64,000 bases of DNA from an uncultured Isosphaeraceae bacterium (GTDB lineage: Bacteria; Planctomycetota; Planctomycetia; Isosphaerales; Isosphaeraceae). Made by a program: the position numbers and the translations under genes. The stretch lies in assembly GCA_963823685.1 (NCBI GenBank), contig CAWGMM010000001.1:60355-124354 (forward strand). Reading direction: 5' to 3'. Every line of letters starts with the position of its first letter. Positions within the stretch are counted from its first letter, which is position 1. Positions 21,066 through 50,223 of this stretch are shown in pieces. Below the pieces are notes generated by a model. The model had not been told where the DNA came from. It searched no databases and worked only from the letters and a program-made list of their open reading frames with translations.

Positions 21066-22050
21066 TCAGGACGAGGTGTTCAACAGTCGTTCAGCGACGG
21101 CCTCGATCGTCGTTGGAGCGTGGCCTTCGAGACGGTTATTGACGAAGAGAAACGCGGGCTTCCGCAGGCGTCTCGAATGCTCGGCGATCGACACCAGCGC
21201 GTCCCGGGCCGATGGGTTGGGCTGCTGGATCAGCCGATAGGGCTCGAAGGCGCGTACCGCCTGCTCATAGGAGCAACCACGGCTCAGCAGGGCTCGCACG
21301 ACCAGGAAGTCGGCCGTGAACGCGCCCGGCATGGTCCATTTGCACACCTAGCTCGGGCATTCGGGTCCACGCATTCAGGACATGAGCCACACCGTGACGG
21401 GCCAGCAGGTCGAAGTATCGGGCACCCAGAAATTCCGGATTGCGAATCTCCACGCCATAACGAAAACCGATCGGCAGCGCCTCCAGAAAAGGAGCGAGCG
21501 CGGCCAGGAAATCGGTGAACTCGGGGAAGGTCGCGCGGCCGAACGCGCCGAACTCGAAGATCAGGGTCGCGACCTGCGCTGGCGGTAGGGCTCCAGTCGG
21601 CGGGCGAAGTGCGTGTTGAAGAGCGAGGCGTCGAGGAAGCCGGGGTTTACCGTACCCGCTCGGCCGCCGTAACGGGCATGGCCCGGCCATCGGGCGACGG
21701 TGATGTCTTCAGGGACCTTGAACGCGAAGGAGAGCGTGCTCGGGGTGCGCTCGAAAAGCCGCTTCCAGTGATCGGGGTCGGGAAACTGGTAGAACGCAAA
21801 GTCGCCGCAGACGACCGGAAACACCCGCGGCGTATTCGGAAAGGCAATCGGCCTCGAACCGGGTACGCGAGAACCGGCCCCGGTTGCGATACCGATCCGG
21901 GTTGTAGACGCTCCCGAGCCAGCCCTCGTACTTCCACGAACTGGTCCCGAAGTAGAGCCCTTGCTCGGCCAGGGTACGCAGCTTCGGGGCCAGCCCCGCT
22001 GCCTGGGGAGGCAGCTCGTCTTCGAGCTCGAATTGTGGAAACAACGACAT
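21066..22050 (-). pseudogene. DUF72 (YecE-like) family protein, split into three frames
   Basis: LYFGTSSWKYEGW (N-terminus), FEFGAFGRATFPEF...LPIGFRYGVEIRNPEFL (middle), FLFVNNRLEGHAPTT (C-terminus) lie in three different reading frames. Confidence 0.6.
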
Positions 22051-22139
22051 CCCGCCGCCTCGTCACTTCGGGACAGACGATCCCGCCGGGGATCGTCTGT
22101 CCCAACCATAACACAAGCACGGGGAGCCGGCGGAAACCA

Positions 22140-25100
22140 CGCGACCTACCATCAATCGTGGCCAGGCGAATGATGCCCTTTCAAATGGCCGGGAAATGCC
22201 ATACCCCCCGCCTCGACAAAGGCGTGCAGGTCGAGGATCTCGTCCCGGGTGAGCACGTTCAGCAACCCGCTCCGGCATCGGCGAGACCTTTGACGCCGCC
22301 TTCTCCTCGACGTCCTTCTTGCGGATGCGCGTCAGCGTATGCGGGGGTCAGCAGATTGGTGGCGATCTGATAGGAGTCGCGCGTCTTCCTTGACGATCAC
22401 GCCGGTCACGACCCGGCCCTCGTTCGTGGCGATCTGGTAGTTCTGGAATTTCTCATGGATCTTGCTCGACGGCTCGATGATCTGCCGCAGCAGCTCTTCG
22501 CCCTTGAGCGTCTTGATCGACTCGGCTCAGGTCGGGGCCAAGGTTCACGCCGTGGCCGGCAACGACGTGACACTGGTTACACCGTGCCTTGACGAATACC
22601 GACATACCGCGCATCAACGTCGCGTTCATCATGACCGCGAGCGATCCGCGCGAAATCGGCGAAATCGGCCATGGTCCATTCCTTGACGATTTCGGCGGGT
22701 CGGCGGCGAGCATCGCCTCGGCGGCGGCCGGGTCGTTGGCGACGACCATCACGCCATTCATGACGACCCAGTGGCCCGGAAACGTGCAGAGATACGGGAT
22801 AAATACCCGGCTCGCGGGCGCCTCGAACCGCAGAACATGGACCATGTGACAGACCGCGTGGGTCCGATCATCGGTCGAGGCGTGCAGGATCAGGTTCCGT
22901 TTCATCGGCGGGACGAAGTCGGAGTTGGCGTTCCGCGGGTCCCTGGCCATCTCGTTGGCGGCCATACCGACCTCGGACATCGCGTCCGGCTTCACGATCA
23001 CGAGGTTGTGGTCGGTGGCGTCGGGATTGGTGAACACGATCTTCACCGGCTGACCGGGTGCCACGGTGAACGCTTGACCGTGAACAGCATCCGCTCGGGC
23101 ATGCACGCGATATTGACCCGCTTGAGGTCCGGCTGGCCGTCGAACTGGGCCTCGGACGCATTCGGGGTTGCGGCTCCTTGATCGACATGCTCGCGACGCG
23201 GCCTGTTTCAGCAAGCCGGGCGATGTCGTACTGCGGGTTGCCCTCCCAGTAGGGACGCAGCGTGTGCGAACCCGAGGCGCACAGGTGATCGCATAGGCGA
23301 GATGACCGTCGCGGGGATGTTTCGAGCACGTCGAGCATCGCCTCGAAGGCCGGCCGTCGTGCCGATGTAACTGGCGGCGATCGCTGCCTCCATCCGGACG
23401 ATGCCGTTCGGGATCGTTGGCCGACGTGCGGAGCAGGCTCCGGCGATCGTCAAGATGACGGATGCCAGTACGCGCAGCTGCTGGGTCGCCGCGGCGCGGG
23501 CGTGGCGGTCGTCGCAGGCGAGCAGCTCGCGCAGGAGCGACGGTGTTGACCGCGTTGATCCAGCGATACGTCCAGATGGCTTCGACCTGATGATGGCGAT
23601 ACCGCGGGTCGTCGGACTCGAAGCCGGGCAACCCAGGCGTCGAGCGCCGACTTCACCTGCGGCGACGTCGCGCTCGCGAAGCTCGCGCTTGGCCCAGTAG
23701 CGATACGCGGTATTCGGGCCGCTTGAGCAGGTCGAGCAGCTCGTCGATCGAGGCGTCCGGCGATCTTCGGCGGGTCTTGGAGCGGACTTGCCCTTCGTGG
23801 TGATCCGCCAGATCCGGCCCGAGTGCCGGTCGCGCCGCTCGTCCCGGAGCGAATACTGCATGTGCCCTTTGACCGGGTTATACCAGTCGCACACATACAG
23901 ATCGCCGCGCGGGCCGAACTGGAGGTCGACCGGAATGAAGCTCAGGTTGGTCGAGAAGAGCAAGTCACTGACATACTTCTTCGTCGTAGCCGAATGGTCC
24001 GCTCATGCCACTTGTGGATCTCGATCCGGTTCGTCGGCTTGTACCGGACCTTGATGAAGCCGCCCCGCAGCTCGTCGGGAAAGGTTGCGAAGTCAACGAA
24101 CTCGTGCCCGCAGACCCCGGAATACGCCTGCAAACCCTTGGGCGACGGATGCTGCTGAGGGTACGGCGGGTCGAGCGCGTGAAAGGCGGCGGCATAGACC
24201 GGATGGCTCGCCACGTGCTGGCCCCAGTCGTCGAACGTCACGCCCCAGGGATTCGTGCTGCTGTAGGTGCCGAAGCTGATCAGCCGGTGCGTCCGCGGCT
24301 GAACCGGAACCAGCCGCTATTCTGCTGCCGGACCGGACCGTACGGCGTCTCGACCTGCGAGTGATGAAAGACCGACTCGCGGAAGATCAGGTCGCCGTCC
24401 GGGGTCCACGTGAAGTCATGCGAGCGCATGGTGCGAGTCCTCGGTGCCGAAGCCGGCGAGGAGCTGCTGCCGGAAGTCGGCCTTGCCGTCGCCGTCGGTA
24501 TCCTTGAGGAACGTCAGGTGCGGCATGTCCGAGACGATAGACACCGCCATGGCCGAGCTCGAACGACAGCGGGATGTGCAGATCGTCGGCAAACACGCTC
24601 GAACGGTCGGCCTTGCCGTCGCCGTCGGTGTCTTCCAGGATCACGAGCTTGTCGTTCGGCTCATTGCCCGGATAAACGTGCGGATACGTGTTCGAGCAGC
24701 TCACCCAGAGCCGGCCCCGGGCATCCCAACGCATCTGGATCGGGTTCGCGATCTCGGGGAACTGTTCCTCGCCCGCGAACAGGTTGACCTCGAACCGCGG
24801 GTCGACCTTGAACGCCTTGAGCTCCTCGGCCGCCGGAAAGCCACTCGTTGACCCCGCGGCTCTGGAGCGTCTTGGGCAGCGGCGGCACATTCGAGTCGTC
24901 CACGGTTCGCCGCGACGCCGCTTCCCCTCGGCGATGTCCCAGATCCTCCGATCGCGATTGGCGACCATGAGGTCGAAATTGCGCATCGCCGGCAGGAAGT
25001 CCAGATAGCCGTACGTCTTGTTCCGGCCGCCGGTGTAGTAGAAGGTGTTGAGCGGGCGGAAGCGGCGGAAGAACTGGCTGGTTCTTGTCCACGATCACCA

Positions 25101-26946
25101 GCCGTAGCGCCTGGTTCAACCCGCGGCGGCTCCTCTCCGAAAAGACCCCGGTAGAGAAGCCTCGGAGAACAGCCGATCTCCCTCCCGCGTCAGGTGGACC
25201 CCATTGAGCGTCAGGTCCGGTCGCGGACTCGCGCATCGCCGACTCCGTGCCGCTGAAAACGTCGACGAAGCCGGCCTGCTGCTCGCGCGCGACCTCGCGC
25301 ATGGCATCGACGTACCGCTTGATCCGGACGTTGTTGCAGATCGGCCGCCGCGACGCCCGCCACGTTCTCGTTGGCGATCGGCGAGACGAGCACGACCCGA
25401 GGAGCCGATTGGCCGTTGTAGGCCTTCGACCTGAGCCCGCGAGGTAACCGGCCAGCTTCTTGCGGAAGTCGTCCAGCCCTCCCGCGTCCGCGAACGACTC
25501 GTTGAACCCGAACGCCGCCAGGATCACGTCGGCGCTGCTCGTGCGTGAGGTGCTGCTCGGTATCGGCGAAGTTCGCGGGGCGGGGCTGCAAGTCAATCGC
25601 GTCGGCCGACCAGGCCAGGTGGCGTACGACAAGTTGATGATGGGGATACCGCTTTTGCAGCATCGCCTCGAAGCTGGCCGAAGTGCTGCGCAGCGTTCCG
25701 AGCAGGGTGTTTCCAATCAGCGCGATCCGGTCACCCGGCTTCAAAACGAGAGGCAAGGCCGTGGCCACGGGTCGCGCAGGCGACGGTCGGGGCGCTGTCT
25801 TCTCGTAGATGCCAAACGCGTCGAATTTCTCGGTCGTCACCGGCGGCGCCGTTTCGAGAGCCACGTGCTTCGCGTCCCGAGGTATCACCCGGGCCTGGGT
25901 GGTGTCGCCAGCCGCGACCTTCGCCGCCCTGGCGGAATGATCGGGAAGGATCGGCGTATCCCAACCCGTCAGCTCCGACGGCTTCACGCCCTTGCGGTGG
26001 CCGCCAAAGCCGAACGTCGTCGGCTGGTACGGACCCACGAACTCGATCGAGAGGTCGGGCGTGACCTGGTCCTCCAGTCCGCAAGCCCAGAACGAGGCGT
26101 TGATCAGCATCCGGCGATAGTCGGCATCGAGGATATCTTCCGACGCTCCGTACGTGCTCGTGAACACACGGCCCGACTTACCCATGGCGTTACGATACGA
26201 GCGCACCCAGCCGCCCGGACACGGCTTCTTGTCCTCGGCGACCTTGGATTCCCGCGTCATGCCGTTGAGCGGCTTCGCCATCGCGAGCACCGTGCTGTCC
26301 GGCATCGGATCGGTCCAGTACCGCGCCGGCCTGAACCCACGGTCGCGACACACCCCGCAGGACCGGGTGCGCTTTCTGGTCGGGCACCAGGTCGAGTCGT
26401 GTGCTCATCGCGTGGTTCTTGCCGTAATGGCCCGCCCACGTCTCGCCCAGAACCTGACGCCCGAAGCCCCTGGTGAACTCAGCACCGGGATAATTCGTGT
26501 CGAACCGCGCATATGTGGACGTACGCGGAATCTTGAACGCATGCGTCGCCGTGCGCAGGCCGACCACCGGCCCGGCCCGGTCGAGGTAATCGGAAATGTG
26601 CTTCATCTGGTCATCGGGGAAATTCTGGAATCGCAGGAAGATGACCATCAGATCGGCCGTGTCGAGCGCCTCCAGACCCGGCATGAAACTCGATCCCGCG
26701 CGATCTCGCCGGTCCTGGGATCGAGGCTGAAAAGCACGGTGCACTTGAAACCATGGTGCCTGGCCAGGATGCGCGCGATGCCGGCAGCGTCTCCTCCGAC
26801 CGGTACTCGTGATCGCCCGCCAGAAACACGATATGCTTACCCAGGCCCGGACCGCGCGTCCCTTCGAATACCAGCTCGGCGGCCGGTGCCGGTACGGCGG
26901 CGAAGATCATGGTCAAGAGCGGAATTCCGATCCCGAGAGCACGCAT
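22140..26946 (-). pseudogene. large multidomain PVC-type secreted protein (ThuA-like, GDSL/SGNH-like, membrane-bound dehydrogenase beta-propeller, cupredoxin and cytochrome c CxxCH domains), split into at least 8 frames
   Basis: Signal peptide MRALGIGIPLLTMIFAAVPAPA at 26946; ThuA-like KHIVFLAGDHEY; dehydrogenase-domain fragment EVNLFAGEEQFPEIANPIQMRWDARGRLWVSCS; cupredoxin CTFPGHWVVMNG; heme motif CNQCH; C-terminal LNVLTRDEILDLHAFVEAGG. Confidence 0.55.
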
Positions 26947-26983
26947 TAAAGAGTTCTCCTGAAATTTATATCTAACATGATCA

Positions 26984-28546
26984 TCACGGCGTATTCTTGC
27001 TCTTATTCGGTTGGCCTGGCTTCGAATCGTTACCCTGAGCCGCTTTGAGAAGCGGTGCCTTCCGTTCCCAGGCGATCGCACGGCTGAAGAGGGTGGGATA
27101 AGGCTCATAGCCGTGTCCCTTGACGACCCTTAGGGTCAGGTCATCGAGCTGAGCGTCGAAGCTTCTTCGCATCGTCGCCAGTTTCTCCGTGTATCGAGGC
27201 TCGGACGCGAGGTTGGTCATCTCGAGTCGATCCCCACCGACGTGGAACAACTCCTCGACGGGCTGCATGCCATCGCCACCGTAGTACCAGTATATATATT
27301 TCCATTCTGGAGTCACCACGGCCATCGATTGGGCCGACCTTGCCCCCCAGAAGTTGAACAGGGGGAGCACGTCGTGAACCTGGCCGGTGGGATTGGTCAG
27401 CAGTGGCAGCAGGCTCTTGCCGTCGATGTCCGCAGGAGGCTCAACACCGGCCAGAGCGCAGAGGGTCGGAGCCATATCCACATTTCCCGTGATCGCGTGG
27501 CAGACGGTGCCGGCGTTCGCTCTGGGCAGGCGTGGATCATAGATCAGGAGCGGCGACTTCGAGCCTTCCTCGTAAGGCAAGACCTTGTCGCCGAAGCCGT
27601 GGGCGCCGCAGTTGTAGCCGTTATCCGAGGTGAAGATGATCACCGTCGATTCCGCAAGGCCCTCCCGTTCGAGCCCCGCGCGGATCATCCCGACCGCGGC
27701 GTCCACGCCCGCGACCAGGCGATAATAGTTCGCCAGCGCGGTGTCGTAGTCGTTGACCCAATCGCGGTAGCTGTTGAACGCCCGGCTCGTCCGGGCCTGG
27801 GGCGCGAGATATGCGGCGTTCTTGACTCCGTAATTGTCAGGCCGAGGGAAGGTCGCGTGATCGTAAAGCGGCCGGTCCAGCGGATCAGGCGTGTTGGGCA
27901 GATGCGGCGCCTTGAAGCTGACCGAGAGGCAGAACGGCTTGCCCGATTGCCTGGCCGCCTTGAGGAAATCAACCGCCCACGCCCCATACGCGCGAGAACA
28001 TTGCGGGTATTGCCCGGCGTACCGGGCGATCCCCTTGTTCTTCGCTGTCTCGTAAAAGGTCTGTCCCGGCCCTCCGGCCCACTGATCGAAAAATGTCTCG
28101 AACGCCTCGAAGGGTTCACCCTGAAGCACGAACCCGATCTTGCCGGCAAAGCCCGTGAAGTATCCCGACTCGCGAAGCCGGACGGGATACGACCGCACAA
28201 AGAACCGACGCTCCAGATCGCCGTGCTCGAAGTTGCAACCGTGGCGATACTCGTAGAGCCCCGTCAGCACGGAGCATCGGCTGGCCATGCAGATCGAGGT
28301 CGTATTGTAGTGATTGGTGAATCGGACCCCGTCGTGCGCGAGCCGGTCCAGGTGCGGGGTCTGGATCTGAGCGTTCCCGTAACAGCCCACGGCCATCGCG
28401 GTCTGATCGTCACTGAGCAGGAAGACAATGTTGGGCGGCGCGGCGACCGCCGCGGACCAGTCGGCAAGCCCGATCCCGATCGCCGCCACAAGTAAAAACT
28501 TGATCTTGCATTGAGCGAGACGCCTGGATGAATCCCGTCGGTTCAT
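26984..28546 (-). CDS. sulfatase (formylglycine-dependent arylsulfatase family)
   Basis: Signal peptide; LLSDDQ...SICMASRCS (C-x-A-x-R formylglycine motif). Confidence 0.85.
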   Translation of the reverse strand: MNRRDSSRRLAQCKIKFLLVAAIGIGLADWSAAVAAPPNIVFLLSDDQTAMAVGCYGNAQIQTPHLDRLAHDGVRFTNHYNTTSICMASRCSVLTGLYEYRHGCNFEHGDLERRFFVRSYPVRLRESGYFTGFAGKIGFVLQGEPFEAFETFFDQWAGGPGQTFYETAKNKGIARYAGQYPQCSRAYGAWAVDFLKAARQSGKPFCLSVSFKAPHLPNTPDPLDRPLYDHATFPRPDNYGVKNAAYLAPQARTSRAFNSYRDWVNDYDTALANYYRLVAGVDAAVGMIRAGLEREGLAESTVIIFTSDNGYNCGAHGFGDKVLPYEEGSKSPLLIYDPRLPRANAGTVCHAITGNVDMAPTLCALAGVEPPADIDGKSLLPLLTNPTGQVHDVLPLFNFWGARSAQSMAVVTPEWKYIYWYYGGDGMQPVEELFHVGGDRLEMTNLASEPRYTEKLATMRRSFDAQLDDLTLRVVKGHGYEPYPTLFSRAIAWERKAPLLKAAQGNDSKPGQPNKSKNTP

Positions 28547-28915
28547 GATCGACCCCGTGCTGGAATGACCCTGCAAGGCGGCGTTCCTGGTGACTTTTCG
28601 GGTTGGATCGTGGGTGCGGAACTCGTTCGCGATCAAGGTGGCCGCCCTGCATTTCGCGGGCTGCCGCCGGGGTGCTCGGGTTCGATTTCCGGGTGGACAC
28701 CTGGTGAGCCTTCGACTGCGTTTTACCAGAACCGAGACGCTCCGTGCATCGTCTTTCCGTCCCGCGCACTCCATTTTGCCACCAACCGGCAGAACTCGGC
28801 GAACTCGCACCGCGGGGACGAAACCCGTCCGGGTTTCGTGGGTTTAATCGGTCATGCGACCGGTACAAAGGTCTCGCAACGTCGCCAACGCCCTCATTTC
28901 CCGGGAGGATGCGTG

Positions 28916-30382
28916 ATGCAGCGCCCCTGGCGATTCCTGATGTTGATGTGCCTCACGCTTACGGCCTCGAGCGAGGCGGCCGAGCCATCGATCAGGCCGA
29001 ACATCATCGTCATCCTGGCCGACGATTACGGTTACGGCAGCGCCGGCTGTTATGGCGGTCAGGGGGTGAAAACGCCGAACCTCGACCGGCTCGGTCGCGA
29101 GGGCCGTCGTTTCACCCAGGCCTACGCGCCGGGCTCGGTCTGCTCGCCGACCCGCTATGGCCTGATGACCGGCCGCTACTACTGGCGTACGAGTGTCAAG
29201 GATGGCGAGGTGCTCCCGGGCAACGCCCCGTTGCACATCGAGACCGACCGGATGACGCTCGCCTCGCTCTGCAAGGGCCAGGGCTACCGGACCGCCGCGT
29301 TCGGCAAGTGGCACCTGGGCCTGGGCTCGGAGCGAACCACCGACTGGTCCGTCACCTTGAAGCCCGGCCCCCTTGAGATCGGCTTCGACCACTTTTTCGG
29401 CCTGGCGGCCAATCCCTGGAACGGCCCCCACACCTTTATCGAGGATCGCGGGCTGACCGGCCGGGTCCCCGGCCAGCCGGCGATCGTCCAGGGCCAGCGC
29501 GAGCAGAGCACGACCAGCGGCATCACCCAGCCCTGGGACGAGACCCGGATCATGCGCACCCTCACCGATCACGCTGTCGCCTGGCTTGAACAGAACCAGG
29601 CCAACGGCCCCTGCTTCCTTTACTTCGCGCCCAACGCGGTCCACATGCCAGTGGTCCCGAATCGAGCGTTCCGAGGAAGTCCTCTGGGTTCCTACGGCGA
29701 CTTCATCTCCGAGCTCGACTGGTCCGTAGGCCAGCTTCTCGACGCGCTCGACCGGACACACACCGCGGACAAGACCCTCGTGATCTTCACCAGCGACAAT
29801 GGCGGCGTGGTGAACCCTAATAACGAACCGTCGTCCAGCGCCATGAAAGCAGGGCTGGCCATCAACGGCGCCCTGCGCGGGGGCAAACACGACATCTGGG
29901 AAGGTGGATTTCGCGAGCCGTTCCTCGTTCGATGGCCCGGCCGCGTCCCGGCCGGCTCGGTGAGCGACCAGGTGATCTGCGTGACGGACGTGCTCGCCAC
30001 GCTCGCGGGCATCCTCGGAGTTCCGCTCCCCGACGGCCAGGCCGAGGACAGCTTCGACGCGCGCGAAGCCTTCCTCGCCACTCATCCCGCCCGGCCCGTG
30101 CGCGACCACGTCATCCTTCAGGATGCCCACGCCACCTACGCCGTCCGGTCGGGCGACTGGAAACTGATCGAGCGGCGCGATGCTCCCTCATTCACCCCTC
30201 GCAACGCCGGCGCCGCCAAGAAGATCGCCGCGGCTCGCAAGAAGGAAGCCGGGCACGACGAGCTGTTCAACCTGGCCAGCGACCCGGCCGAAACCAGGGA
30301 CGTCCACGCCCAACATCCCGACGTCGTGGCCCGGCTCCGTCAACTCCTGGCCGATTCCCGCGGGAATGGGCACACGCGCTGA
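28916..30382 (+). CDS. sulfatase (formylglycine-dependent), divergent from the previous gene
   Basis: Signal peptide; IVILADDYGYG...SVCSPTR motif. Confidence 0.85.
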   Translation: MQRPWRFLMLMCLTLTASSEAAEPSIRPNIIVILADDYGYGSAGCYGGQGVKTPNLDRLGREGRRFTQAYAPGSVCSPTRYGLMTGRYYWRTSVKDGEVLPGNAPLHIETDRMTLASLCKGQGYRTAAFGKWHLGLGSERTTDWSVTLKPGPLEIGFDHFFGLAANPWNGPHTFIEDRGLTGRVPGQPAIVQGQREQSTTSGITQPWDETRIMRTLTDHAVAWLEQNQANGPCFLYFAPNAVHMPVVPNRAFRGSPLGSYGDFISELDWSVGQLLDALDRTHTADKTLVIFTSDNGGVVNPNNEPSSSAMKAGLAINGALRGGKHDIWEGGFREPFLVRWPGRVPAGSVSDQVICVTDVLATLAGILGVPLPDGQAEDSFDAREAFLATHPARPVRDHVILQDAHATYAVRSGDWKLIERRDAPSFTPRNAGAAKKIAAARKKEAGHDELFNLASDPAETRDVHAQHPDVVARLRQLLADSRGNGHTR

Positions 30383-32566: not shown

Positions 32567-32958
32567 CTTCCACCAGAAATTGCGTCCTGGTTTATCGAAA
32601 AACCAAGAATACACACTTTCACGTAAAAATGCCGTTGGGAGGCGAGGCGCTCGCCGGTCACACCTCGGGAAGCGGGGTACCGCTTGAGCCGTCCGGGCCG
32701 TCGGCGTCCGATCAACGCCGGGTGCTCGCCGGGGTCGAGACCCCGCGGTGCACGTCGAGCGATGACCATTCACCGGCGCCCGGGACGGCGGAATCCGCGG
32801 ACCGCAGGGCTCCCTTTTCGTGCTGCCGCTGCGCGGCCATTGCCTGTGAAGGCAACGCCAACGCGGCGGCCAACCAGGCGTTCGCCCGCCTCCCGCGGGC
32901 GCGTGGGTCGAGACGTTTTGACGCGTCTCGGGCTCGGTCGGTGTTCAGCCGACTGCGG

Positions 32959-33030
32959 AGCAGTGGACGGGAATCGAACCCGTAACGTCCAGGTTATCAG
33001 CCTGGTGCTCTACCCTTGAGCTACCACGTC
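32959..33030 (-). tRNA. tRNA-Ile (anticodon GAU)-like; cloverleaf is intact except for two mismatched acceptor-stem pairs (2-71, 3-70)
   Basis: D-arm GCTC-AAGGGTA-GAGC, anticodon arm CCAGG-CTGATAA-CCTGG, variable loop ACGTT, T-arm ACGGG-TTCGATT-CCCGT. Confidence 0.55.
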
Positions 33031-40602: not shown

Positions 40603-40675
40603 ATGTCGCGGGTAAAGTGTGTAGACTGAATCGCGCCTTGATGAAATGGTGTAGGCTCGACGGGAGAATGGATCG

Positions 40676-42352
40676 ATGGGCAACGTTTACCGGAAGCAAG
40701 TGACCCGCCCGTTGCCGCCAGGGGCGGAGATCATCGAACGCAAGGGCGAACGGCTCGCCCGCTGGCGGGATGCCAGGGGCAAGATCCGAACCGCCCCCCT
40801 GACCGAATCCGGGGACCGCATCCGGGAAACGTCCCGGACGTTCCATGCCCGCTACCGGACCGGAGAGGGAACCATCGCCGACGTTCCGACCGGCTGCCGA
40901 GATGAGCAAGCCGCGCGGGCCGTTCTCGCCGACCTGGAGAAGCGGGCCGAAATGGTCAAGGCCGGAATCCTCAAGACCGCCGAGTTGCAAACCGCCGATC
41001 ATGCCCGGACGCCGATCGCCGAGCATTTCGATGCCTACCTGAACCATCATGACGCGGCCGGATCGGTCGCGTTGCATCGCCACAACGTTCGGACCTACCT
41101 GGATCGGATCGCCGCTGACTGCGGATTCCGCCGGCTCGCCGACCTGGATCGGTCCGCGTTCGAGAGCTGGCTGTCCCGCGAGACCAAACGCGGCCGGTCG
41201 GCCCGGTCCCGGAACACGCACCGGGCAACGCTCATCGCGTTCTGTCACTGGTGTTCCAGGCCGGAGGTTGCCCGGTTGGCGTCCAACCCGTTCAAGGGAA
41301 TCCCGAAAGCGGATGAGAAAGCGGACCCCCGCCGCAAGCGCCGGGCCATGACCGAGAGCGAGTTGACCCGGTTGCTCGACGTCGCCCGGACCCGCCCGCT
41401 GACCGAGGCCCTGACCGTCAGGAGAGGCAAGGCGAAGGGTTCGACCCATGCCAAGGTCCGCCCGGAGGTCCGCGAACGGCTCGACGCTCTCGGCCGGGAA
41501 CGCGCGTTGATCTACAAGACGCTCATCCTGACCGGACTTCGCAAGGGCGAGTTGACGAGTCTGACGATTGGTCAAGCCTGTCTCGACGGACCCCGCCCGT
41601 ACCTGGACCTGAGTGCGGCGGACGAGAAGAACCGGGAAGGGGCCTGGCTGCCCCTGCGGGCCGACCTGGCGGACGACTTGCGGCAATGGCTTGCCGACCG
41701 GCTGACATCGCTCCAAGACGACGCCAGGGGCCAAGGCGAGCCGATCCCGGTCCGATTGCCCGCCGACATGCCGTTGTTCAACGTTCCGGCCGGTCTGATC
41801 CGCATTTTCGACCGGGACTTGAAAGCCGCTGGGATCGCCAAGCGCGACGACCGAGGCCGGACGCTTGACGTCCATGCCCTGCGGACGTCGTTCGGCACGC
41901 TCTTGAGCGCGGGCGGGGTTCCATTGCGGACGGCTCAAGCCGCGATGCGGCATTCCGACCCCAGCTTGACCGCGAACGTGTATACCGACCCCCGGTTGCT
42001 CGACGTGGCCGGAGCGCTCGACGCCCTGCCGGCGCTTCGGCTCGACCGTCCCGACGTCGATAGCATGCGTGCGACCGGGACGGTCGGCGGGTCGAACCCT
42101 TCGGCTCGTTTGTGCCAGGGGCCTGTCACGTCCGTTGCACTAAATGTTGCTGCGAATCCGTGCAACGAGAGACAAGGAAGTTCAATTGGTGGCAAAATGA
42201 ACAGGACCGACCTGGAATTGGCCGGTCCTGATCGGTTCGCCGTAACTTCCATCTCTGACAGGGGAAATCATCTCGTGTCATTGCCTGACACTGGCTTCCC
42301 CTCAGTATGCCCGGCAGGACTTGAACCTGCAACCTTTAGCTCCGGAGGCTAA
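40676..42352 (+). CDS. int: tyrosine-type site-specific integrase; ORF runs into the tRNA-Arg gene
   Basis: Catalytic region LDVHALRTSFGTLL...RTAQAAMRHSD...ANVYTD (R..H..R..Y arrangement); N-terminal SAM-like/arm-binding domains. Confidence 0.85.
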   Translation: MGNVYRKQVTRPLPPGAEIIERKGERLARWRDARGKIRTAPLTESGDRIRETSRTFHARYRTGEGTIADVPTGCRDEQAARAVLADLEKRAEMVKAGILKTAELQTADHARTPIAEHFDAYLNHHDAAGSVALHRHNVRTYLDRIAADCGFRRLADLDRSAFESWLSRETKRGRSARSRNTHRATLIAFCHWCSRPEVARLASNPFKGIPKADEKADPRRKRRAMTESELTRLLDVARTRPLTEALTVRRGKAKGSTHAKVRPEVRERLDALGRERALIYKTLILTGLRKGELTSLTIGQACLDGPRPYLDLSAADEKNREGAWLPLRADLADDLRQWLADRLTSLQDDARGQGEPIPVRLPADMPLFNVPAGLIRIFDRDLKAAGIAKRDDRGRTLDVHALRTSFGTLLSAGGVPLRTAQAAMRHSDPSLTANVYTDPRLLDVAGALDALPALRLDRPDVDSMRATGTVGGSNPSARLCQGPVTSVALNVAANPCNERQGSSIGGKMNRTDLELAGPDRFAVTSISDRGNHLVSLPDTGFPSVCPAGLEPATFSSGG

Positions 42353-42379
42353 CGCTCTATCCAATTGAGCTACGGGCAC
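42306..42379 (-). tRNA. tRNA-Arg (anticodon CCG)
   Basis: Acceptor GTGCCCG/CGGGCAT (G1-U72 wobble), D-arm GCTC-AATTGGATA-GAGC, anticodon arm TTAGC-CTCCGGA-GCTAA, T-arm GCAGG-TTCAAGT-CCTGC. Confidence 0.8.
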
Positions 42380-42415
42380 GACTGGACCCTATTTCAGCCC
42401 CGGGGTGGCCGTTTG

Positions 42416-43441
42416 TCAAGGGGAGTAAAGCGTCAGAGCCGGGGGCGGGTGAAGGGTCAGGCCGATTCCAGACAGCGGTTGGAGCTCCTCCAGTTCGGTC
42501 CGGCCGCCGACGATCAAGGGGGTGCGCTGGTGGACGCTCTCGGGAACGATGTCGAGAATCCGGCGGCGGCCGTCGGTGGCGAGGCCGCCGGCTTGCTCGA
42601 CGAGGAAGGCGATCGGGCTCGCCTCGTAGAGGAGCCGGAGCTTGCCGCCGGGATGGTCGGCGGTCGGCGGGTAAAGGAAGACGCCCCCCTTGAGAAGGGT
42701 CCGGTGGAAGTCCGCGACCATCGAGCCGATGTAGCGCAGGCTGTATCTTTCGGCCCAGGCCGCCCGGCTTGAGGCGATCGAGATAGGTCCGGTAGGCCGG
42801 CGGAAAGGCGTCGCTGTTGCCCTCGTTGACCGAGTAGTACGAGCCCTGGTCGGGGATGCGGATGTTCTCGTGGCTCAGGACGTAGGCGCCGATCGCGGGG
42901 TCGAGCGTGAACCCGTGGACGCCGTTGCCCACGCTGTAGACCAGCGTGGTCGAGGAACCGTACACCACGTAGCCCGCCGCCACCTGGCGGCTTCCCGGCT
43001 GGAGCAGCCAGCTCGTCACGTCGGATGTGTCGACCCCCTCCGGCCGACGCAGGATCGAGAAGGTCGTGCCCACGCTCACGTTCACGTCAATGTTCGATGA
43101 TCCATCGAGCGGATCGAAGATCACCGCGTAGCTGGCCCGCTCCGAGTGGTGCGGGACCGTGATCGGGTGGTCGTTCTCCTCGGAGGCGAGGATGCCGATG
43201 CTCTCGCGGACGCTCAGGCAGTGAAGGAGCACGTTGTTGGCGTAGACGTCGAGCTTCTGCTGGATCTCGCCCTGAACGTTGATCTCGCCCTCGCGCCGAG
43301 GATGTCGCTCAGGCCGGCGCGTCGGACCTTCGCCTGGATCATCTTGGTCGCCAGGGTGATTCCGGACAACAGCCACGAGAACTCGCCCGAGGCGCCGGGG
43401 AAACGCTTCTGGTCCTGGAGGATGTGTTGCTGAAGCGTCAA
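42416..43441 (-). pseudogene. fbp: fructose-1,6-bisphosphatase class 1, split over three frames
   Basis: N-terminus MTLQQHILQDQKRFPGASGEFSWLLSGI, middle NVQGEIQQKLDVYANN...DPLDGSSNIDVNVSVGT, C-terminus [17 protein letters not shown]...[11 protein letters not shown] lie in different frames. Confidence 0.7.
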
Positions 43442-43519
43442 GATCGGCCGATCGGGGAGCGGGCAGCCACTCCTCGACGCGCAGGGGCCGGGTCATGCCG
43501 GGTTTCGGATTCATGGGGA

Positions 43520-44770
43520 GGTTCCTCGATCGAACGGGAGAAGGGTTCGACACGATGGAATCGAGCCTACCAGTGCGGGCCGCGCTGGAGATAGACAGGA
43601 TCGGATCAAAGCACGCCCGCGGTGATCTCGGTCAGCGCATCGAGGAAGCTGTCGATGTCGTCCGTCGGTCGTGAACGGGCCGGGGCTGAGGCGAAGCGTG
43701 CCGTCGGGGAAGGTGCCGAGGGCGCGGTGGATGTAGGGGGCGCAGTGCAGGCCGGGCCGGACGGCGATCTCGAAGCTGGTGTCGAGGATCGAGCCGAGGT
43801 CCTGGGGCGTCAGAGGCGTCGGGGACGATCGAGCGACAGGGCGCCGACGTGGGTGGTCGGGTCCCAGCGGCCGGCGACCTGCCAGCCGTCGGCGGACTCG
43901 GCCCAGTCGACGACGCGCTCGAAGCAGGGCGACCTCGTGCCGGCGCAGGGTCTCGGGCCCGCGCTCGGCGACCCAGGCGACCCCGGCGGCCAGGCCCGGC
44001 GACGCCCAGGACGTTGGGCGTGCCCGCCTTCGAGATAAGTAGGGCAAGAGCGTCGGCTGGGTCTGGCTCGACGAGTCGCCGCCGGTGCCCCCCTCGCGCC
44101 AGGCGCGCAGGCTGGCGCGCGGGCCGACGTAGAGGACGCCGGTGCCGGTCGGTCCGTAGAGCGCCTTGTGGCCGGGGAAGGCCAGCAGGTCGATCGGCGT
44201 GGCCTGGAGGTCGATCGGCGACCACGCCCGCCGTCTGCGCGGCGTCGACCAGGTAAAGCGCCCCGGCCTCGCGGACGATCGCGCGCGATCGCCTCGATCG
44301 GCTGCACCGTCCCCAGCACGTTCGAGGCGTGCGTGTGCGCCACCAGGCGGGTCCGCGGCGTCAGGGCGCCGGCGGATCGCGTCGGGGTCGAGGTAGCCCT
44401 GATCGCGAGGCGACGCGCGTCAGCGTGATGACCCCGGCCTTTTCCAGGGCCCGCGAGCGGCCGGCTGATCGAGTTGTGCTCGAGGTCGGTGGTGATCGAC
44501 GTGGTCGCCCGGCCGCGATCACTCCCTTGATCGCCATGTTCAGGGCGTCGGTGCAGTTGAGCGTGAAGATCCAGCGCTCGGGCGCCTTCGCCGTGGAAGA
44601 ACTGGTTCAGGGCATGCCGCGCGTCGTCGAGCGCCCGCTCGGCCGGCGACCGCCATCCGATGCCCGGCCCGCCCGGGGTTGGCCAGCTGCGTGCGCGCGA
44701 AGCGGTCGAGGGCCTGGTAGACGGGCTCGGGCTTGGGAAAGCTGGTGGCGGCGTTGTCGAGGTAAATCAT
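43520..44770 (-). pseudogene. class V aminotransferase (cysteine desulfurase / SufS-like), multiply frameshifted
   Basis: [24 protein letters not shown] (N-terminus), AHTHASNVLGTVQPIEAIA (middle), IAVRPGLHCAPYIHRALG (C-terminus) in different frames. Confidence 0.6.
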
Positions 44771-44793
44771 GATCAGGGCCGTCCCGGCGGAAA

Positions 44794-45873
44794 TCAACTT
44801 CCCACGAACTGGGCGTAGAGCGTCCGGGCCTTGGCGATGTCGTTGGTCCCCTTGATGATGGCGCGGCCGTCGGGGAAGACGGTGAACTCGTGGCCCTCGG
44901 TGGCGAACCGGAGCATGAAGGCGTTGTGCCGGACATCGCCCAGGGGGGCGAGGCGTCGGGCCAGTTCGGGGAAGTCGAGCGGGCTCGGCCACGGCGGGTG
45001 GCGACCTGGACGGCGTTCCGGCCGCAGAGCGTCGTCGTGTGCGAGCCGAGGGCGCCGTCGAGCCACTCGAACTGGCGGCGCTGACAGCACGGACAATCGA
45101 CCTTGCCGAGCAGGCCGGCGACCTTGAGCCGGCGGAACGACCAGTCCCAGAGGTCGACCATGATCAGCTCGCGGTTCAGGGCGTCGATCGCGCCCGCTGA
45201 GGAGCTTGATCGCCTCGACGGCCTCGAACGACGCGATCACGGCGACCGCCGGGCCGAGCACGCCGGCCGTCTCGCAGGTCGGGGTCATCCCGGGCGGCGG
45301 GCTGGTCTCGATCAGGCAGCGGATGCACGGGGTCTGCCCGGGCAGGATCGTCATCGTCTGCCCTTCGCTGCCGATCACGCCGCCGAAGATCCACGGCTTG
45401 CCGAGCTTCACCGCCGCGTCGTTGATCAGGTAGCGGGTCTCGAAGTTGTCGGTCCCGTCGAGGATCAGGTCGGCGTCGCCCACCAGGTCGAGGATGTTGG
45501 TGTGGTCGATGTCGGTCACGACCGGCTCGATCGTCGATCGTGCTGTTGATCTGCGCGGAGCTTGCGCGCGGCGGCCTCGGCCTTGGGCAGGTTGTCGGCG
45601 ACGTCGTGACTCGTCGAAGAGGATCTGGCGCTGGAGGTTGTGCGTCTCGATGAAGTCGCGGTCGACGATCCGGATCCGGCCCACCCCGGCGCGGGCCAGG
45701 TGGTTGGCCAGCACCGTCCCGAGCGCACCGCAGCCGCAGATCGTGACCCGGCTGGCCATCAGACGCCGCTGGCCGGCCTCGCCCAGCGCCGGGAAGCGGA
45801 CCTGGCGGCTGTAGCGATCGAGTGATTCGGCGTCGAGGTCAACGGCCATGGTCTCTGGGATATCCACGGACAA
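44794..45873 (-). pseudogene. ThiF/MoeB/MoeZ-type E1-like adenylyltransferase, frameshifted
   Basis: LDRYSRQVRFPALGEAGQRRLMASRVTICGCGALG; C-terminal CPCC...C Zn motif in a second frame. Confidence 0.65.
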
Positions 45874-45916
45874 GACGATGCTTGGCTTGCGGCGGACGGA
45901 AGAACGAGGGCCTGGC

Positions 45917-46195
45917 TCAGCCCCCGGCCACGGCGGGGATGATGCTCACCTCGTCGCCCGCGGCGACGGCGGTGGCCAGGTCGTCGAGGTAGCGGATGTC
46001 CTCGTTGTTGACGTACACGTTGACGAACCGGCGGAGCTCCGCGCCGTCGAAGATGCCGCTCGCGGAGCGCGGGGTACTGTTCGCCGAGGTCGGCGAGGAC
46101 CTCGCCGACGGTGGCACCCGTCGGCCTCGACGACGTCGTGGCCGCCGGCGTGGGGGCGGAGCGGGGTGGGGATGCGGACCTGCGGCATGGTGAAG
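45917..46195 (-). CDS. ThiS/MoaD/CysO-like sulfur-carrier protein (C-terminal GG), frameshifted near the N-terminus
   Basis: ...[35 protein letters not shown]-stop; N-terminal [12 protein letters not shown] is in an adjacent frame. Confidence 0.55.
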
Positions 46196-46307
46196 TCGTT
46201 CCCTTCTGGCGATCGTTCGCGGAATCGACGATTCCGTCGACGCCGGTTCCGCGTCGGTCCGAGTTCCGGGGGACCGACCCGGACGAGCTTACCCTCGAGA
46301 TCGACTA

Positions 46308-47700
46308 TCAGGCGCCGCGCCGGCGAGCTCGGGGCTGGCGGCGGCGGGCTCGAGCTCGTGGGCATGGCCGTGAGCGGCCGACCAGGGCCTCGAAGGCGTC
46401 GAGGCTGGGCTTGATGACGACCGGCCGCGCGATCCGGTCGATCAGGGCTTCCTGGGTCTTCAGGCCGTTGCCGGTGATGCAGAGGACGGTCGAGCCGTCG
46501 CGATCGATCCGGCCCTGCTCGATCAGCTTCTGGGCGACGGCCAGGGTGACGCCGCCGGCGGTCTCGGCCCAGATCCCCTCGGTCTCGGCCAGGAGCTTCA
46601 TCGCGTCGACGATCGCGTCGTCGTCGACGTCCTCGCTCCAGCCGCCCGAGTCGCGGATCAGCTGCGAGGCGAAGTAGCCGTCGGCCGGGTCGCCGATCGC
46701 CAGGCTCTTGGCGATCGTGTTCGGGTTGCGGATCGGCTTGACCTTGAACGCCTCGGTCTTGACCGTGTTCGAGATCGGGTTGCAGCCGGTCGCCTGGGCG
46801 CCGAACATCCGGGTGCGTGACCGGCCCGTCGATCAGGCCGAGCTTCTCGAACTCCTTGAGCGCCTTGAGCAGCTTGCCGATCAGGCTGCCGCCGGCCATC
46901 GGGGCGACGACGTGGTCGGGTGCGCGCCAGCCGAGGTCCTCGGCGATCTCGAAGCCCATCGACTTCGACCCCTCGGCGTAGAACGGCCGGAGGTTCACGT
47001 TGACGAACCCCCAGCCGAACCGGAAGGCGATCTGCGAGCAGAGGCGGTTGACGTGGTCGTAGTTTCCCTCGATCGCGATCACCTTGGCGCCGTAGATCGT
47101 GGCGCCGAGGACCTTGCCCTGCTCGAGGCCGTCGGGGATCAGGACGTAGGCCTCGAGCCCGGCGGCGGCGGCGTTGGCCGCGACGCTGCCGGCGAGGTTG
47201 CCCGTCGAGGCGCAGCCGACCGTCTGGAAGCCGAGCTCGACCGCCTTGGAAAGCGCCACGGCGACCACCCGGTCCTTGAACGAGAGCGTCGGGTGGTTCA
47301 CCGCGTCGTTCTTGATGTAAAGCTCGCGCACGCCCGAGCACCTTGGCCAGCCGGTCGGCCCGGATCAGCGGGGTGCCGCCGACGTGCCGGCCGACGGTCG
47401 GCTCGCCGTCGACCGGCAGGAGCTCGCGATACCGCCACATCGTCCGCGGCCGGCTCTCGATCGCCCGGCGGCTCAGGGTCCGCGCCACCGCCTCGTAGTC
47501 GTAGCGACTTCGAGCGGCCCGAAGTCGTCGGTGCAGAAGTTGAGCGCTTCCTTGGGATAGAGCTTGCCGCAGAGGCGACACTTCAGAGTCCGCGAACAAG
47601 TTCAGACACCGGCGATCCTCCTCTTCAATGCGAGACCGTTCTCGGGCAGGCGACGCGAACGCCGGTCCAGACGGAGGCGAGGCCGTCGAAGACACGCGTC
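46308..47700 (-). pseudogene. threonine synthase-like PLP enzyme with N-terminal Cys4 zinc ribbon, multiply frameshifted; candidate O-phosphohomoserine-dependent homocysteine synthase
   Basis: KCRLCGKLYPKEALNFCTDD (Zn ribbon), MWRYRELLPVDG...GGTPLI, LYIKNDAVNHPTLSFKDR (PLP lysine), C-terminus KMFGAQATGCNPI... lie in three frames; GAGGAGG RBS before a GTG near 47690. Confidence 0.6.
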
Positions 47701-47809
47701 GTGTTCGTTCGCAGCAACCTGAGAGGCACAGATCGAGAAGATGAGGGGATAGGGCAAGTATAAGGAGGGTCACTGGGCTCGCGGAGAGAAATCCGCGGCC
47801 ACGGAAGAC

Positions 47810-47968
47810 CATCTTATCTGTCCCATCGGCGTTCTCGGTCGGCCGCAGATCAGTCGCGGCGATCTCGAACAAAACGCTGGGCAGGAGTTAGCACCAGCAT
47901 TCGCCATGGTGGCGAACCGGTTGCTGTGGCGTCGCAGGGCCCGTCCCTCAGCCACTCTGGATAAGATG
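47810..47968 (-). promoter_or_regulatory. SAM-I riboswitch (S-box) in the leader of the thrC-like operon
   Basis: Minus-strand sequence CATCTTATCCAGAGTGGCTGAGGGACGGGCCCTGCGACGCCACAGCAACC...GGTGCTAACTCCTGCCCAG...GATAAGATG matches the SAM-I consensus (P1 pairing, GAGGGA, GGCCC, GCAACC, GGTGCTAA). Confidence 0.75.
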
Positions 47969-48070
47969 CGCACCAAATTGTGATGCCGCAAGTGTATCCC
48001 CCGCGAAACGGCCGAGTCAAGTCGGAACCGCGTTCGCGATGGATTTTGCCGGGTCGATCGTGGCGCGGAT

Positions 48071-48853
48071 TCAGGCGTTTCCGGTCAGGACCCGATCACG
48101 CAGGGCCGGAAACTCGCCGCGGGCGCGGGCGACGGCCGGGACGTCGATCTCGAACGTGAGCAACGTCTCGGCCTCGCCGGCCTCGGCGATGACGTTGCCG
48201 GCGGGATCGACCGCCAGGCTCCCCCCGGCCAGGGTCACGCCGCCGTGCGAGCCGGCGCCGCAGCAGGCGATGACGAACGCCTGGTTCTCGATCGTGGCGC
48301 GCCCGGTTCAGAAGCCGCCACGCCTCGCGCCGCGCGGCCGGCCAGGCGGCGACATTCAGGAGGACCTCGGCCCCCTGATCGATCAATCGACGATACAGCT
48401 CGGGAAACCGCAGGTCGTAGCAGATCGACAGGCCGAGCTTGCCCAGCGGGGTCGACGCGACGACGACCTCATCGCCGGGGCTGATCAGCGGCGCTCCTGC
48501 GACTGGTAGCCAAACAGGTGGATCTTGCGATAAACCGCCCCGATCCGGCCCCCCGGGTCGATCAGGACGCTCGTGTTGTGGAGCGTCTCGCCGGCGCGTT
48601 CGACCACGCTGCCGGCGCAGACGAACGCGCCGATCGACGCGGCCCGGTCGCGAATCGACCGGAGCGTCGGGCCGTCGAGCGGCTCGCTCTCATCGGCGTA
48701 CCGCGCGAAGGCGAAGTAGCCGGTCGGCCAGAGTTCGGGCATGACCACCAGGTCGCTTCCCCGCGCCTGGTCCAGCATCGCCAGCGCATGGGCCATCGAT
48801 TCTTCGCGGGTGGCCCCGTCCCGGTTGGCCATCTGGATGATCGAGACTCGCAT
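48071..48853 (-). pseudogene. carbon-nitrogen hydrolase (nitrilase superfamily), frameshifted
   Basis: MRVSIIQMA...VVMPELWPTGY (N-terminus) and LLNVAAWPAARREAWRLLNRARAIENQAFVIA (C-terminus) in different frames. Confidence 0.6.
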
Positions 48854-48968
48854 GACGGCGAAACACCCCCCTGCCCCTGTTCAAGACGCTTCCGACGTAT
48901 GATACTGCACGCCATCGATCTTTTAAGCCTTACGTGCCGTGGATTCCTTGATCAAACGAGGCAACGCC

Positions 48969-50223
48969 ATGTACCAGGAGCGACGCAAACTCTCCGTGCT
49001 CGCCGCCGCCAGCGCGGTGGTCGTCATTGTGAGCGGTCTGACGTGGCTGGGGCTCGGAGCGCCGCCGGGCGCAGGACGAGCCGATTGACGTCCCGAAGGC
49101 CAAGGCGCTCTTCCAGCGTCAGCAGAACGGAGAAACGCTCACCGAACCGGAAAAAGCCTACATCGAGCGGGTCAAGAAGGAGGTTCAGAAACGCCAGGCC
49201 GGCGGCGCGGGCGGAGCCGGGCCGTCGATCGCGCAGCCGGTGCCGGTGCCGCCGCCCACGAGCTCGACCGGCCTGGTGCCGCTGACCGACCTGAACGGTC
49301 CGGCGTACAAGGGCGAGGACGGCGGCCTCTACGGCGGCGGCCGGAACGAGCCCCCCGAGGCGCATCGCGCGTCGGTTGCGGCCGAGGTCGCGAAGATCGA
49401 GCCCCTCGATGCCGACGGCCGCCCCGCATCGGTGGAAAAGGGGGGCAAGATCGCGTTCCTCTCGATCGGGATGTCGAACACGACCCAGGAATTCTCGGCC
49501 TTCATGAAGCTGGCCGCGGCCGACCCGCGGAAGTCGCCCGCGGTGGTGCTGGTCGATGGAGCGCAGGGCGGTCGGGTGGCGTCGGTCTGGGCCAACGACG
49601 GCGACGGCAACCGCGGCCCCGACCCCTGGCCGGTCCTCGACCAGCGGCTCAAGGCCGCCGGAGTCAGCCCGCTCCAGGTCCAGGTCGCCTGGATCAAGCA
49701 CGCGCAGAACGCCCCCCACACCCTGGCCGACTTTCCCCGGATGATGCACGCGCAGTACCTCGCCAACAACATCATGCTCACCGCGCAACGGCTACGGAAG
49801 CGGTTTCCCAACCTGCGGGTGGCCTACCTTTCGAGCCGGATCTACGCCGGGTACGCGACCACGCCCCTGAATCCCGAGCCCTACGCCTATGAAGGCGCGT
49901 TCGCCAACCGGTGGGTGATCCAGGCCCAGATCAAGGGCGACCCGCTCCTGAACTTCGACAAGGCCCGAGGGCCCGTGCTGGCCCCGGCCCTGGTCTGGGG
50001 ACCGTATCTCTGGGCCGATGGCGTCAAGCCGCGTCAGGGGGATCACCTGGTCTGGCTCCGCGAGGACCTCAGCCCCAGGGACGGCACCCACCCCAGCGAC
50101 GCCGGCCGCGAGAAGGTCGCCCGGCTCCTGCTCGACTTCGTCCACCGCAACCCGCTGGCCAGCCCCTGGTACCTGGGAAACGCGGCCCGAGAGGGATCGA
50201 CCGAGCCGGCCCCGGTCCGGTAA
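48969..50223 (+). CDS. secreted SGNH/GDSL-like hydrolase-fold protein (probable frameshift after the signal peptide near 49070)
   Basis: Signal/TM MYQERRKLSVLAAASAVVVIVSGL at 48969 in a different frame from the main ORF; IAFLSIGMSNT block resembles SGNH block I. Confidence 0.4.

Follow-up and report, generated by a model that had tools for sequence, protein, structure and literature searches.

In the sulfur relays of thiamine (ThiS/ThiF/IscS) and molybdopterin (MoaD/MoeB) synthesis and of tRNA thiolation (TtuB/TtuC), an E1 enzyme adenylates a carrier protein ending in Gly-Gly, a desulfurase then transfers its persulfide, and the sulfur feeds cofactor or tRNA synthesis without control by S-adenosylmethionine (SAM). 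In the CysO/CysM/MoeZ/Mec pathway of Mycobacterium tuberculosis, said to have been described by Burns et al. in 2005, a carrier thiocarboxylate is the sulfur nucleophile and the fold-type II pyridoxal 5'-phosphate (PLP) enzyme CysM, a member of the cysteine synthase branch, forms cysteine from O-phosphoserine, with no SAM riboswitch being involved. A dedicated E1 generates the carrier thiocarboxylate in the HcyS/HcyF/HcyD system of Wolinella succinogenes, reportedly described by Krishnamoorthy and Begley in 2011, in which the carrier is trimmed by HcyD and the sulfur is used for homocysteine synthesis from O-acetylhomoserine by MetY, an enzyme of fold type I. The MetM/MetO thiocarboxylate homocysteine pathway of Streptomyces albulus, which Hasebe et al. 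are said to have described in 2024 (Appl Environ Microbiol 90:e01247-24), is known here through GapMind 2026 and PMC12172450. As summarized in these sources, MetO serves as carrier, Mec as hydrolase, MoeZ as ligase, and MetM as synthase (GapMind 2026, crediting Hasebe 2024); MetM is often misannotated as threonine synthase (GapMind 2026), and its gene is preceded by a SAM riboswitch (PMC12172450). The same sources list a cyanobacterial homolog that is 51.6% identical to MetM and has a neighbor 47% identical to MetO (PMC12172450), and for the threonine synthase ThrC of B. subtilis an identity of 33% with MetM has been reported. Here, we describe a minus-strand operon behind a SAM-I riboswitch in a 64,000-nucleotide (nt) stretch of DNA of an uncultured Isosphaeraceae bacterium (Planctomycetota; assembly GCA_963823685.1, contig CAWGMM010000001.1, positions 60,355 to 124,354), which is referred to as a whole as the window. 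This operon probably encodes SAM-repressed, carrier-thiocarboxylate-dependent homocysteine synthesis and thus a planctomycete counterpart of MetM/MetO, the approximately 27 frameshifts in its genes being errors.

The operon comprises, in this order, the genes of a ThrC-like PLP enzyme, a sulfur carrier, an E1, and a cysteine desulfurase (Table 1). Family scans, all run on frame-corrected proteins, bore out the gene set and order given in a preliminary description of this DNA, and reading of the frames agreed with its statement that every gene is split over several of them, each being readable only via frame switches. Two intact relatives were available for comparison, L001, which is a metagenomic contig, and L003, the complete genome of Singulisphaera acidiphila. 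Both contain these four genes, likewise in this order and with an RF00162 aptamer in front; the order is kept in other Planctomycetota as well. The similarity between the window and L001 starts and stops at the borders of the operon unit (Table 1), with which the range of 43520-47968 proposed initially agrees. The parts of the operon, their order and conservation, and the link between riboswitch and genes are direct observations. As far as the S. albulus pathway is described in the sources named above, it shares with this operon a ThrC homolog combined with a ThiS/MoaD-type carrier, the presumed substrate O-phosphohomoserine, and an upstream SAM riboswitch. Whereas charging of the Streptomyces carrier relies on the E1-rhodanese fusion MoeZ, with Mec as additional component, the window carrier already ends in Gly-Gly and is accompanied by its own long E1, which has no rhodanese domain, and by a desulfurase.

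The ThrC-like protein matches the PALP family (233 bits) and reaches only 41 bits with cysteine synthase A. Its catalytic PLP lysine lies in the motif LSFKDR (K111, invariant in the alignment A2 of homologs), and an N-terminal zinc ribbon is formed by C10, C13, C25, and D28. The pattern of this ribbon (window 47582-47528, residues 10-28) is CxxC...CxxD in the Isosphaeraceae, and its fourth position is Cys in most other members. The extension carrying the ribbon comprises about 55 residues and is not present in solved ThrC structures: the threonine synthases 2ZSJ, 6CGQ, 1UIM, and 2D1F align to residues 53-408 only (176-216 bits), and the canonical ThrC architecture of about 350 amino acids (aa) without N-terminal zinc ribbon is not matched by the window protein. 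A search of the PDB retrieved no MetM structure. Intact orthologs have 420-430 aa and up to 94% identity, and those with names belong to the Isosphaeraceae (for example Singulisphaera, Paludisphaera, and Aquisphaera). In three Nitrospirota operons that encode both types of enzyme, the identity of the window protein amounts to 57-59% with the MetM-type protein vs. 35-39% with the canonical ThrC; identities are 52% to an actinobacterial, riboswitch-linked class of homologs and 56-59% to cyanobacterial homologs of the type for which 51.6% identity to MetM was reported. With canonical ThrC the window protein shares the PLP fold and the presumed substrate, but canonical ThrC lacks the zinc-ribbon N-terminus and has no link to a carrier or a SAM riboswitch. 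Judged by these sequence comparisons, the ThrC-like protein is a member of a distinct paralogous clade tied to a sulfur carrier and SAM sensing, as is reported for MetM; the preliminary description had regarded clustering with canonical threonine synthases as the outcome that would contradict it, and both the identities and the extension place the protein apart from them.

A comparison of gene neighborhoods, which had been recommended in the preliminary description, was based on a profile of diverse homologs that yielded 80 best loci with 54-73% identity from at least 10 phyla (Planctomycetota, Verrucomicrobiota, Acidobacteriota, Nitrospirota, Nitrospinota, Thermodesulfobacteriota, Chloroflexota, Cyanobacteria, Actinomycetota, and others); neither Streptomyces nor Isosphaeraceae are in this set. 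At about 75 of the 80 best loci, the gene directly behind the ThrC-like one encodes a carrier, and 51 carriers end exactly in Gly-Gly. A covariance model of our own, made from three Isosphaeraceae aptamers, detected a SAM-I aptamer at 43 of the 80 loci, located upstream of the ThrC-like gene at a distance of 70-350 nt and on its strand. With Rfam, RF00162 was detected in front of the homolog of the actinomycete Actinoplanes derwentensis (72.7 bits), and no riboswitch was found at the tested Nitrospirota, Nitrospinota, and cyanobacterial loci. A 91-aa open reading frame (ORF) near the Actinoplanes gene was rejected as a carrier, and a search with the actinobacterial representative P0127 returned Micromonosporaceae only. 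Among the sampled loci, the four-gene form with long E1 and desulfurase occurs only in Isosphaeraceae, Gemmatales, and a few other Planctomycetota (L001-L010 and L067, with L007 lacking the desulfurase within the stretch covered), and in other phyla the carrier has as its neighbor either a short E1 resembling MoeB or a fusion of carrier and E1. The pairing of a MetM-type enzyme with a carrier, often behind a SAM-I riboswitch, is thus widespread well beyond Streptomyces, and the sulfur-activation module varies by lineage, involving MoeZ in trans, an E1 that is short or fused to the carrier, or a long E1 with desulfurase.

The S-box aptamer postulated for the operon leader was recovered by Rfam cmscan as an RF00162 match at 47844..47967 (-), which exceeded the gathering score of 44.4 with 51.6 bits (E 6e-9) and was the sole riboswitch in the window. 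This match is clipped at its 3' end, and the leaders of the two intact relatives place the 3' strand of helix P1 at 47818-47811, where it pairs with 47967-47960. All 34 hand-assigned pairs of P1-P4 are canonical in the window, and the core is invariant compared to both relatives, whose leaders score 75-76 bits (orthologous leaders overall, 72.7-76.4); 17 additional nt in the P4 loop of the window account for its lower Rfam score. With our own covariance model the window aptamer reached 172 bits. In an alignment of 47 homologous leaders, 95.3% of the cells were paired vs. about 45% with slid partners, compensatory changes occurred in 25 of the 34 pairs, and none of 500 shuffles reached the observed value, but the alignment had been fitted to the model and these figures are biased toward the structure. 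The putative promoter in front of the aptamer is the only promoter-like site in 43300-48300 (0.3 expected by chance), and both its TTGAC hexamer and the spacing are kept in L001 and L003.

Regulation by this riboswitch would most likely act on translation. The element CCCUCCUUA is the predicted partner of the P1 3' strand in all three leaders (window, L001, and L003) if P1 itself does not form, and CCCUCCUUA is also complementary to the Shine-Dalgarno (SD) sequence of the ThrC-like gene at 47621-47617, where AGGAGnATCGCCGGTG is conserved in L001 and L003; the element may act as an anti-SD or anti-sequestor. No convincing intrinsic terminator was found downstream of the window aptamer, which makes translational control by occlusion of the ribosome-binding site the most likely mode, with SAM presumably switching the operon off. 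A terminator-like site at 47805-47792 was rejected as its 5-bp stem is within chance expectation and not conserved. In some Gemmatales relatives, hairpins with U-runs follow the aptamer.

The condition of the four genes raised the question of whether the operon is functional at all. Alignment to the DNA of L001 revealed about 27 frame-breaking events in the coding regions, 25 of 27 being window-specific insertions of 1 or 2 nt (in almost all cases 1 nt), mostly C or G outside homopolymer runs. After removal of these indels by projection onto L001, no in-frame stop remained in any of the four genes, and the ratios of nonsynonymous to synonymous substitution rates (dN/dS; Nei-Gojobori method) were 0.17, 0.04, 0.10, and 0.14 for the ThrC-like enzyme, carrier, E1, and desulfurase, respectively, vs. 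0.13, 0.14, 0.09, and 0.11 in the control comparison of the intact L003 with the intact L001. Because stops are absent and dN/dS is as low as in the intact control, the substitution pattern identifies the approximately 27 frameshifts as sequence errors and not as gene decay, and the unrelated flanking genes of a fructose-1,6-bisphosphatase and a hydrolase (CN_hydrolase) are frameshifted too, which indicates that the damage is not specific to the operon. The earlier assumption of sequencing indels was thus borne out by the dN/dS test; the argument first offered for it, that the riboswitch is intact while the genes are split, carries little weight because, at about 1 indel per 145 nt, the chance that a core of about 110 nt is spared is roughly one half. 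A decayed, non-functional pseudogene cluster with biological frameshifts would explain why every gene has several of them and why the damage is uneven, with some window genes such as that of an integrase (40676-42352) being intact, but 27 independent indels, nearly all of them small insertions, without relaxed substitution are not how pseudogenes evolve, and damage to unrelated flanking genes fits this explanation poorly. True pseudogenization was rejected on these grounds and is considered extremely unlikely.

The remaining three proteins could all be assigned to families of sulfur transfer. The carrier starts 119 nt downstream of the ThrC-like gene, belongs to the ThiS family (Pfam, 70 bits; MoaD_arch/SAMP1 also matched), and has M. 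tuberculosis CysO as its closest solved relative (3DWG, 89.7 bits). The E1 matches PRK12475 over its full length (346 bits), whereas the ThiF Pfam match (255 bits) is confined to residues 12-241 and the similarity to E. coli ThiF/MoeB and Uba4 to residues 1-253. It contains the nucleotide loop GCGALG and two CxxC pairs (C173/C176 and C250/C253) that are invariant among planctomycete orthologs, followed by about 95 aa of conserved C-terminal extension, which includes an invariant Cys273 in TT[TS]LCGRNAVQ and a DGRAIIKGT motif. No Pfam hit to a rhodanese domain was obtained for the E1, and the MoeZ model NF005902 covers its residues 3-243 only (202 bits vs. a cutoff of 647). An AlphaFold model of the E1, calculated with 20 close sequences, had a mean predicted local distance difference test score of 63.9, which fell below 45 in the Cys273 region. 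For the fourth gene, which had been described as class-V aminotransferase or cysteine desulfurase-like, the fold assignment held but a generic aminotransferase did not: the hand-stitched product scored 388.4 bits with TIGR01977 vs. a curated cutoff of 377, contains the motifs GHKALYGP with the PLP lysine and RPGLHCAP with the catalytic cysteine, and has cysteine desulfurase 5B7S and SufS 5XT5 as best PDB matches. Conservation of the four-gene order in S. acidiphila and other Planctomycetota indicates that carrier and E1 belong to this operon and not, as had been considered, to a molybdopterin or thiamine context.

The module thus resembles the thiamine, molybdopterin, and tRNA thiolation relays in that an E1, nearest to E. 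coli ThiF/MoeB, would adenylate a Gly-Gly carrier prior to persulfide transfer from a desulfurase, but it is located within a methionine operon and its E1 has the tail described above. With CysO/CysM it shares the presumed thiocarboxylate nucleophile, a fold-type II PLP enzyme, a presumed O-phospho amino acid substrate, and a carrier nearest to CysO, and with HcyS/HcyF/HcyD a dedicated E1 that would make a carrier thiocarboxylate as the sulfur source of homocysteine; the fold-type I enzyme, O-acetylhomoserine, and carrier trimming of the latter do not apply to the window. These similarities leave room for a different product, such as cysteine from O-phosphoserine, a thio-cofactor, or a natural product, with the control by SAM reflecting general sulfur status: the best solved relative of the carrier stems from the cysteine pathway of M. 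tuberculosis, and E1 and desulfurase modules are established in thiamine, molybdopterin, and tRNA thiolation. However, the PLP enzyme is of the ThrC branch, which acts on O-phosphohomoserine, and does not fall into the CysK/CysM branch, as its low cysteine synthase A score illustrates, and SAM-I riboswitches are overwhelmingly located in front of methionine and SAM genes. Moreover, the only member of this gene pair characterized according to the available descriptions makes homocysteine (GapMind 2026, PMC12172450). A product other than homocysteine is therefore regarded as quite unlikely.

For homocysteine synthesis, the following sequence of events is proposed. The desulfurase would draw sulfur from cysteine as an enzyme-bound persulfide, while the E1 would adenylate the C-terminal Gly-Gly of the carrier, and the persulfide sulfur would convert the resulting acyl-adenylate into the carrier thiocarboxylate. 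The ThrC-like enzyme would activate O-phosphohomoserine, the product of homoserine kinase otherwise used for threonine, by means of PLP, and the thiocarboxylate would replace water as the nucleophile; the homocysteine released would then be methylated to methionine. Abundant SAM would bind the leader aptamer and lock P1, and expression would drop, most likely through ribosome-binding site occlusion. We infer each chemical step as well as the direction and mode of regulation from the protein families and the Streptomyces precedent. The use of a thiocarboxylated carrier by a ThrC-like enzyme to form homocysteine from O-phosphohomoserine, as suggested in the preliminary description, matches what is reported of the S. 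albulus pathway; the idea is not new, since according to the same sources the pathway was published in 2024. By this comparison, the locus is most likely a further example of a described pathway and not a new one. What the sequences single out as specific to Isosphaeraceae and Gemmatales is the presence of a dedicated long E1 without rhodanese and a TIGR01977 desulfurase in the same operon. These lineages may possess a self-contained four-protein route from cysteine to homocysteine that bypasses cystathionine, with the TIGR01977 enzyme as sulfur donor and the E1 tail with Cys273 in place of the rhodanese relay of MoeZ, but this more specific proposal is tentative and in our judgment slightly more apt to fail than to hold.

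Several points weigh against homocysteine synthesis as the function of the operon. The ThrC-like protein scored 287 bits with TIGR00260, the thrC equivalog model, against a cutoff of 167, which accounts for its public annotation. The Microcystis homolog of MetM had threonine synthase and deaminase activity in vitro and caused no rise of methionine in vivo, as far as described (PMC12172450), and the family members may thus not all be dedicated homocysteine synthases. Orthology to S. albulus MetM is deduced from gene context and transitive similarity. In constrained folding of the three leaders, SD-exposed and SD-hidden states were not separated, as for the window and L001 the SD was paired in either state and for L003 the script selected a GGAG past the start codon; folding was consequently dropped as evidence for SD sequestration. 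Finally, the frameshifts are patchy along the window and are not explained by simple uniform sequencing error. The first two of these points, together with the database annotations, all of which read "threonine synthase" for the orthologs, and the threonine synthases found as nearest solved structures, would also fit a genuine threonine synthase, possibly a bifunctional synthase/deaminase, with the other three genes merely being co-located and serving another sulfur task. A threonine gene would, however, have no reason to stand behind a SAM riboswitch, and such an enzyme would leave the carrier adjacency in about 75 of the 80 best loci across phyla unexplained. In addition, a canonical ThrC that is only 35-39% identical to the window protein coexists with the MetM-type enzyme in the Nitrospirota operons, and misannotation of MetM as threonine synthase is explicitly flagged in GapMind 2026. 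A genuine threonine synthase is accordingly considered very unlikely, and synthesis of homocysteine remains the probable function.

The main value of these results lies in annotation and metabolic reconstruction and not in a new kind of biology. Under the public labels "threonine synthase", "ThiF family" (E1), and "aminotransferase" (fourth gene), automated reconstructions of Planctomycetota, Verrucomicrobiota, Acidobacteriota, and other phyla will miss homocysteine synthesis. If the four-protein route exists, it would assign a function to two poorly understood subfamilies, the TIGR01977 desulfurases and the long E1 enzymes, and many "threonine synthase" annotations in Planctomycetota would conceal a methionine pathway. 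The locus also provides a worked example of how assembly indels can be told from gene decay by dN/dS.

Table 1. Features of the operon in the window and of an additional ORF in related operons. HMM, hidden Markov model.
Feature	Position	Strand	Remarks
Conserved operon unit	43606..48024	-	Stretch alignable to L001, 83.6% nucleotide identity
Putative sigma-70-like promoter	47991..48020	-	TTGACT-18 nt-TACACT; about 24 nt upstream of aptamer
SAM-I (S-box, RF00162) aptamer	47811..47967	-	Rfam, alignment of relatives, pairing, own model, covariation
CCCUCCUUA element	47761..47769	-	Conserved in L001 and L003; predicted alternative partner of P1 3' strand
Shine-Dalgarno sequence GGAGG	47617..47621	-	7 nt before GTG start (47609-47607) of ThrC-like gene
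metM-type gene, ThrC-like PLP enzyme, ~430 aa	46308..47609	-	PALP/thrC HMMs; ~6 frame-breaking indels
metO/cysO-type sulfur carrier, 89 aa	45917..46188	-	ThiS/MoaD beta-grasp; ends AVAGG then stop; 2 frame-breaking insertions
ThiF/MoeB-type E1 adenylyltransferase, ~350 aa	~44794..45849	-	Alternative TTG start 45873; 5 frame-breaking insertions
SufS-like (type II) cysteine desulfurase, 382 aa	43606..44770	-	TIGR01977, Aminotran_5; ~14 frame-breaking insertions
~110-aa Gemmatales ORF	L005 8907-9242; L006 7632-7961; L007 7721-8065; L008 8272-8598; L009 4790-5152		

The neighbors of the operon are unrelated to methionine and consist of a carbon-nitrogen hydrolase gene upstream and genes of a class I fructose-1,6-bisphosphatase, a tRNA-Arg, and an integrase downstream. 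The intact gene of the latter, a phage-type tyrosine integrase (PF00589, window 40676-42379), abuts the 3' end of tRNA-Arg(CCG), and a tRNA-Ile(GAT) is located 9 kb further left at 32957-33030. This arrangement looks like an integrated mobile element beside the operon, which may account for the loss of synteny with the relatives at the operon border. Frame-breaking indels are dense at approximately 21000-27000 and 42400-48900, where the reading frame switches every 100-300 nt in blocks of several kb, and single-frame genes of more than 1 kb occur elsewhere (for example at 7309-8946, 9234-10667, 10763-12592, 16763-18316, 28907-30352, 40661-42073, and 49042-50208). A scan of frames by G + C content at third codon positions was noisy, as the genome has 66% G + C and antisense frames also score, and was used qualitatively only. 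An intact integrase gene of 1.7 kb would be very unlikely at about 1 indel per 145 nt, which points to unevenness of polishing or coverage or to a mosaic assembly. Compared to L001, the spacer between the ThrC-like and carrier genes contains a 19-nt insertion (window 46218-46236, minus strand), CGGAATCGTCGATTCCGCG, which holds the perfect palindrome GGAATCG/CGATTCC and may be simple lineage variation.

Further observations were made in the related loci. The three Nitrospirota operons encode the MetM-type enzyme, the carrier, and a canonical ThrC of 363-375 aa without zinc ribbon in this order (second ThrC at L040 7850-8941, L047 1974-3101, and L049 2168-3268), so that both enzymes consuming O-phosphohomoserine are encoded together at the branch point of threonine and methionine. 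About 18 carriers have 1-6 residues beyond Gly-Gly and those of L014, L022, L026, L030, L031, and L050 run on past it into a further domain of about 80 residues; in L083, a metagenome-assembled genome of the Actinomycetota, the carrier is continued by about 265 aa (7229 onward) and represents a carrier-E1 fusion. All these forms imply proteolytic maturation in the lineages concerned. In five Gemmatales operons, the carrier is directly followed by an ORF of about 110 aa (Table 1) that is not present in the window, contains the conserved motifs EGAAVFPLIPxELG and KWPKQxVRFLQxFL, and matched no Pfam family; it could be an extra pathway component in this order. In the same operons (L005-L009), the genes of carrier, E1, and desulfurase are separated by inserted genes of Uma2-family putative endonucleases (PF05685) and by small ORFs occurring in pairs, and these insertions (for example L009 6832-7467) stretch the operon over several kb.

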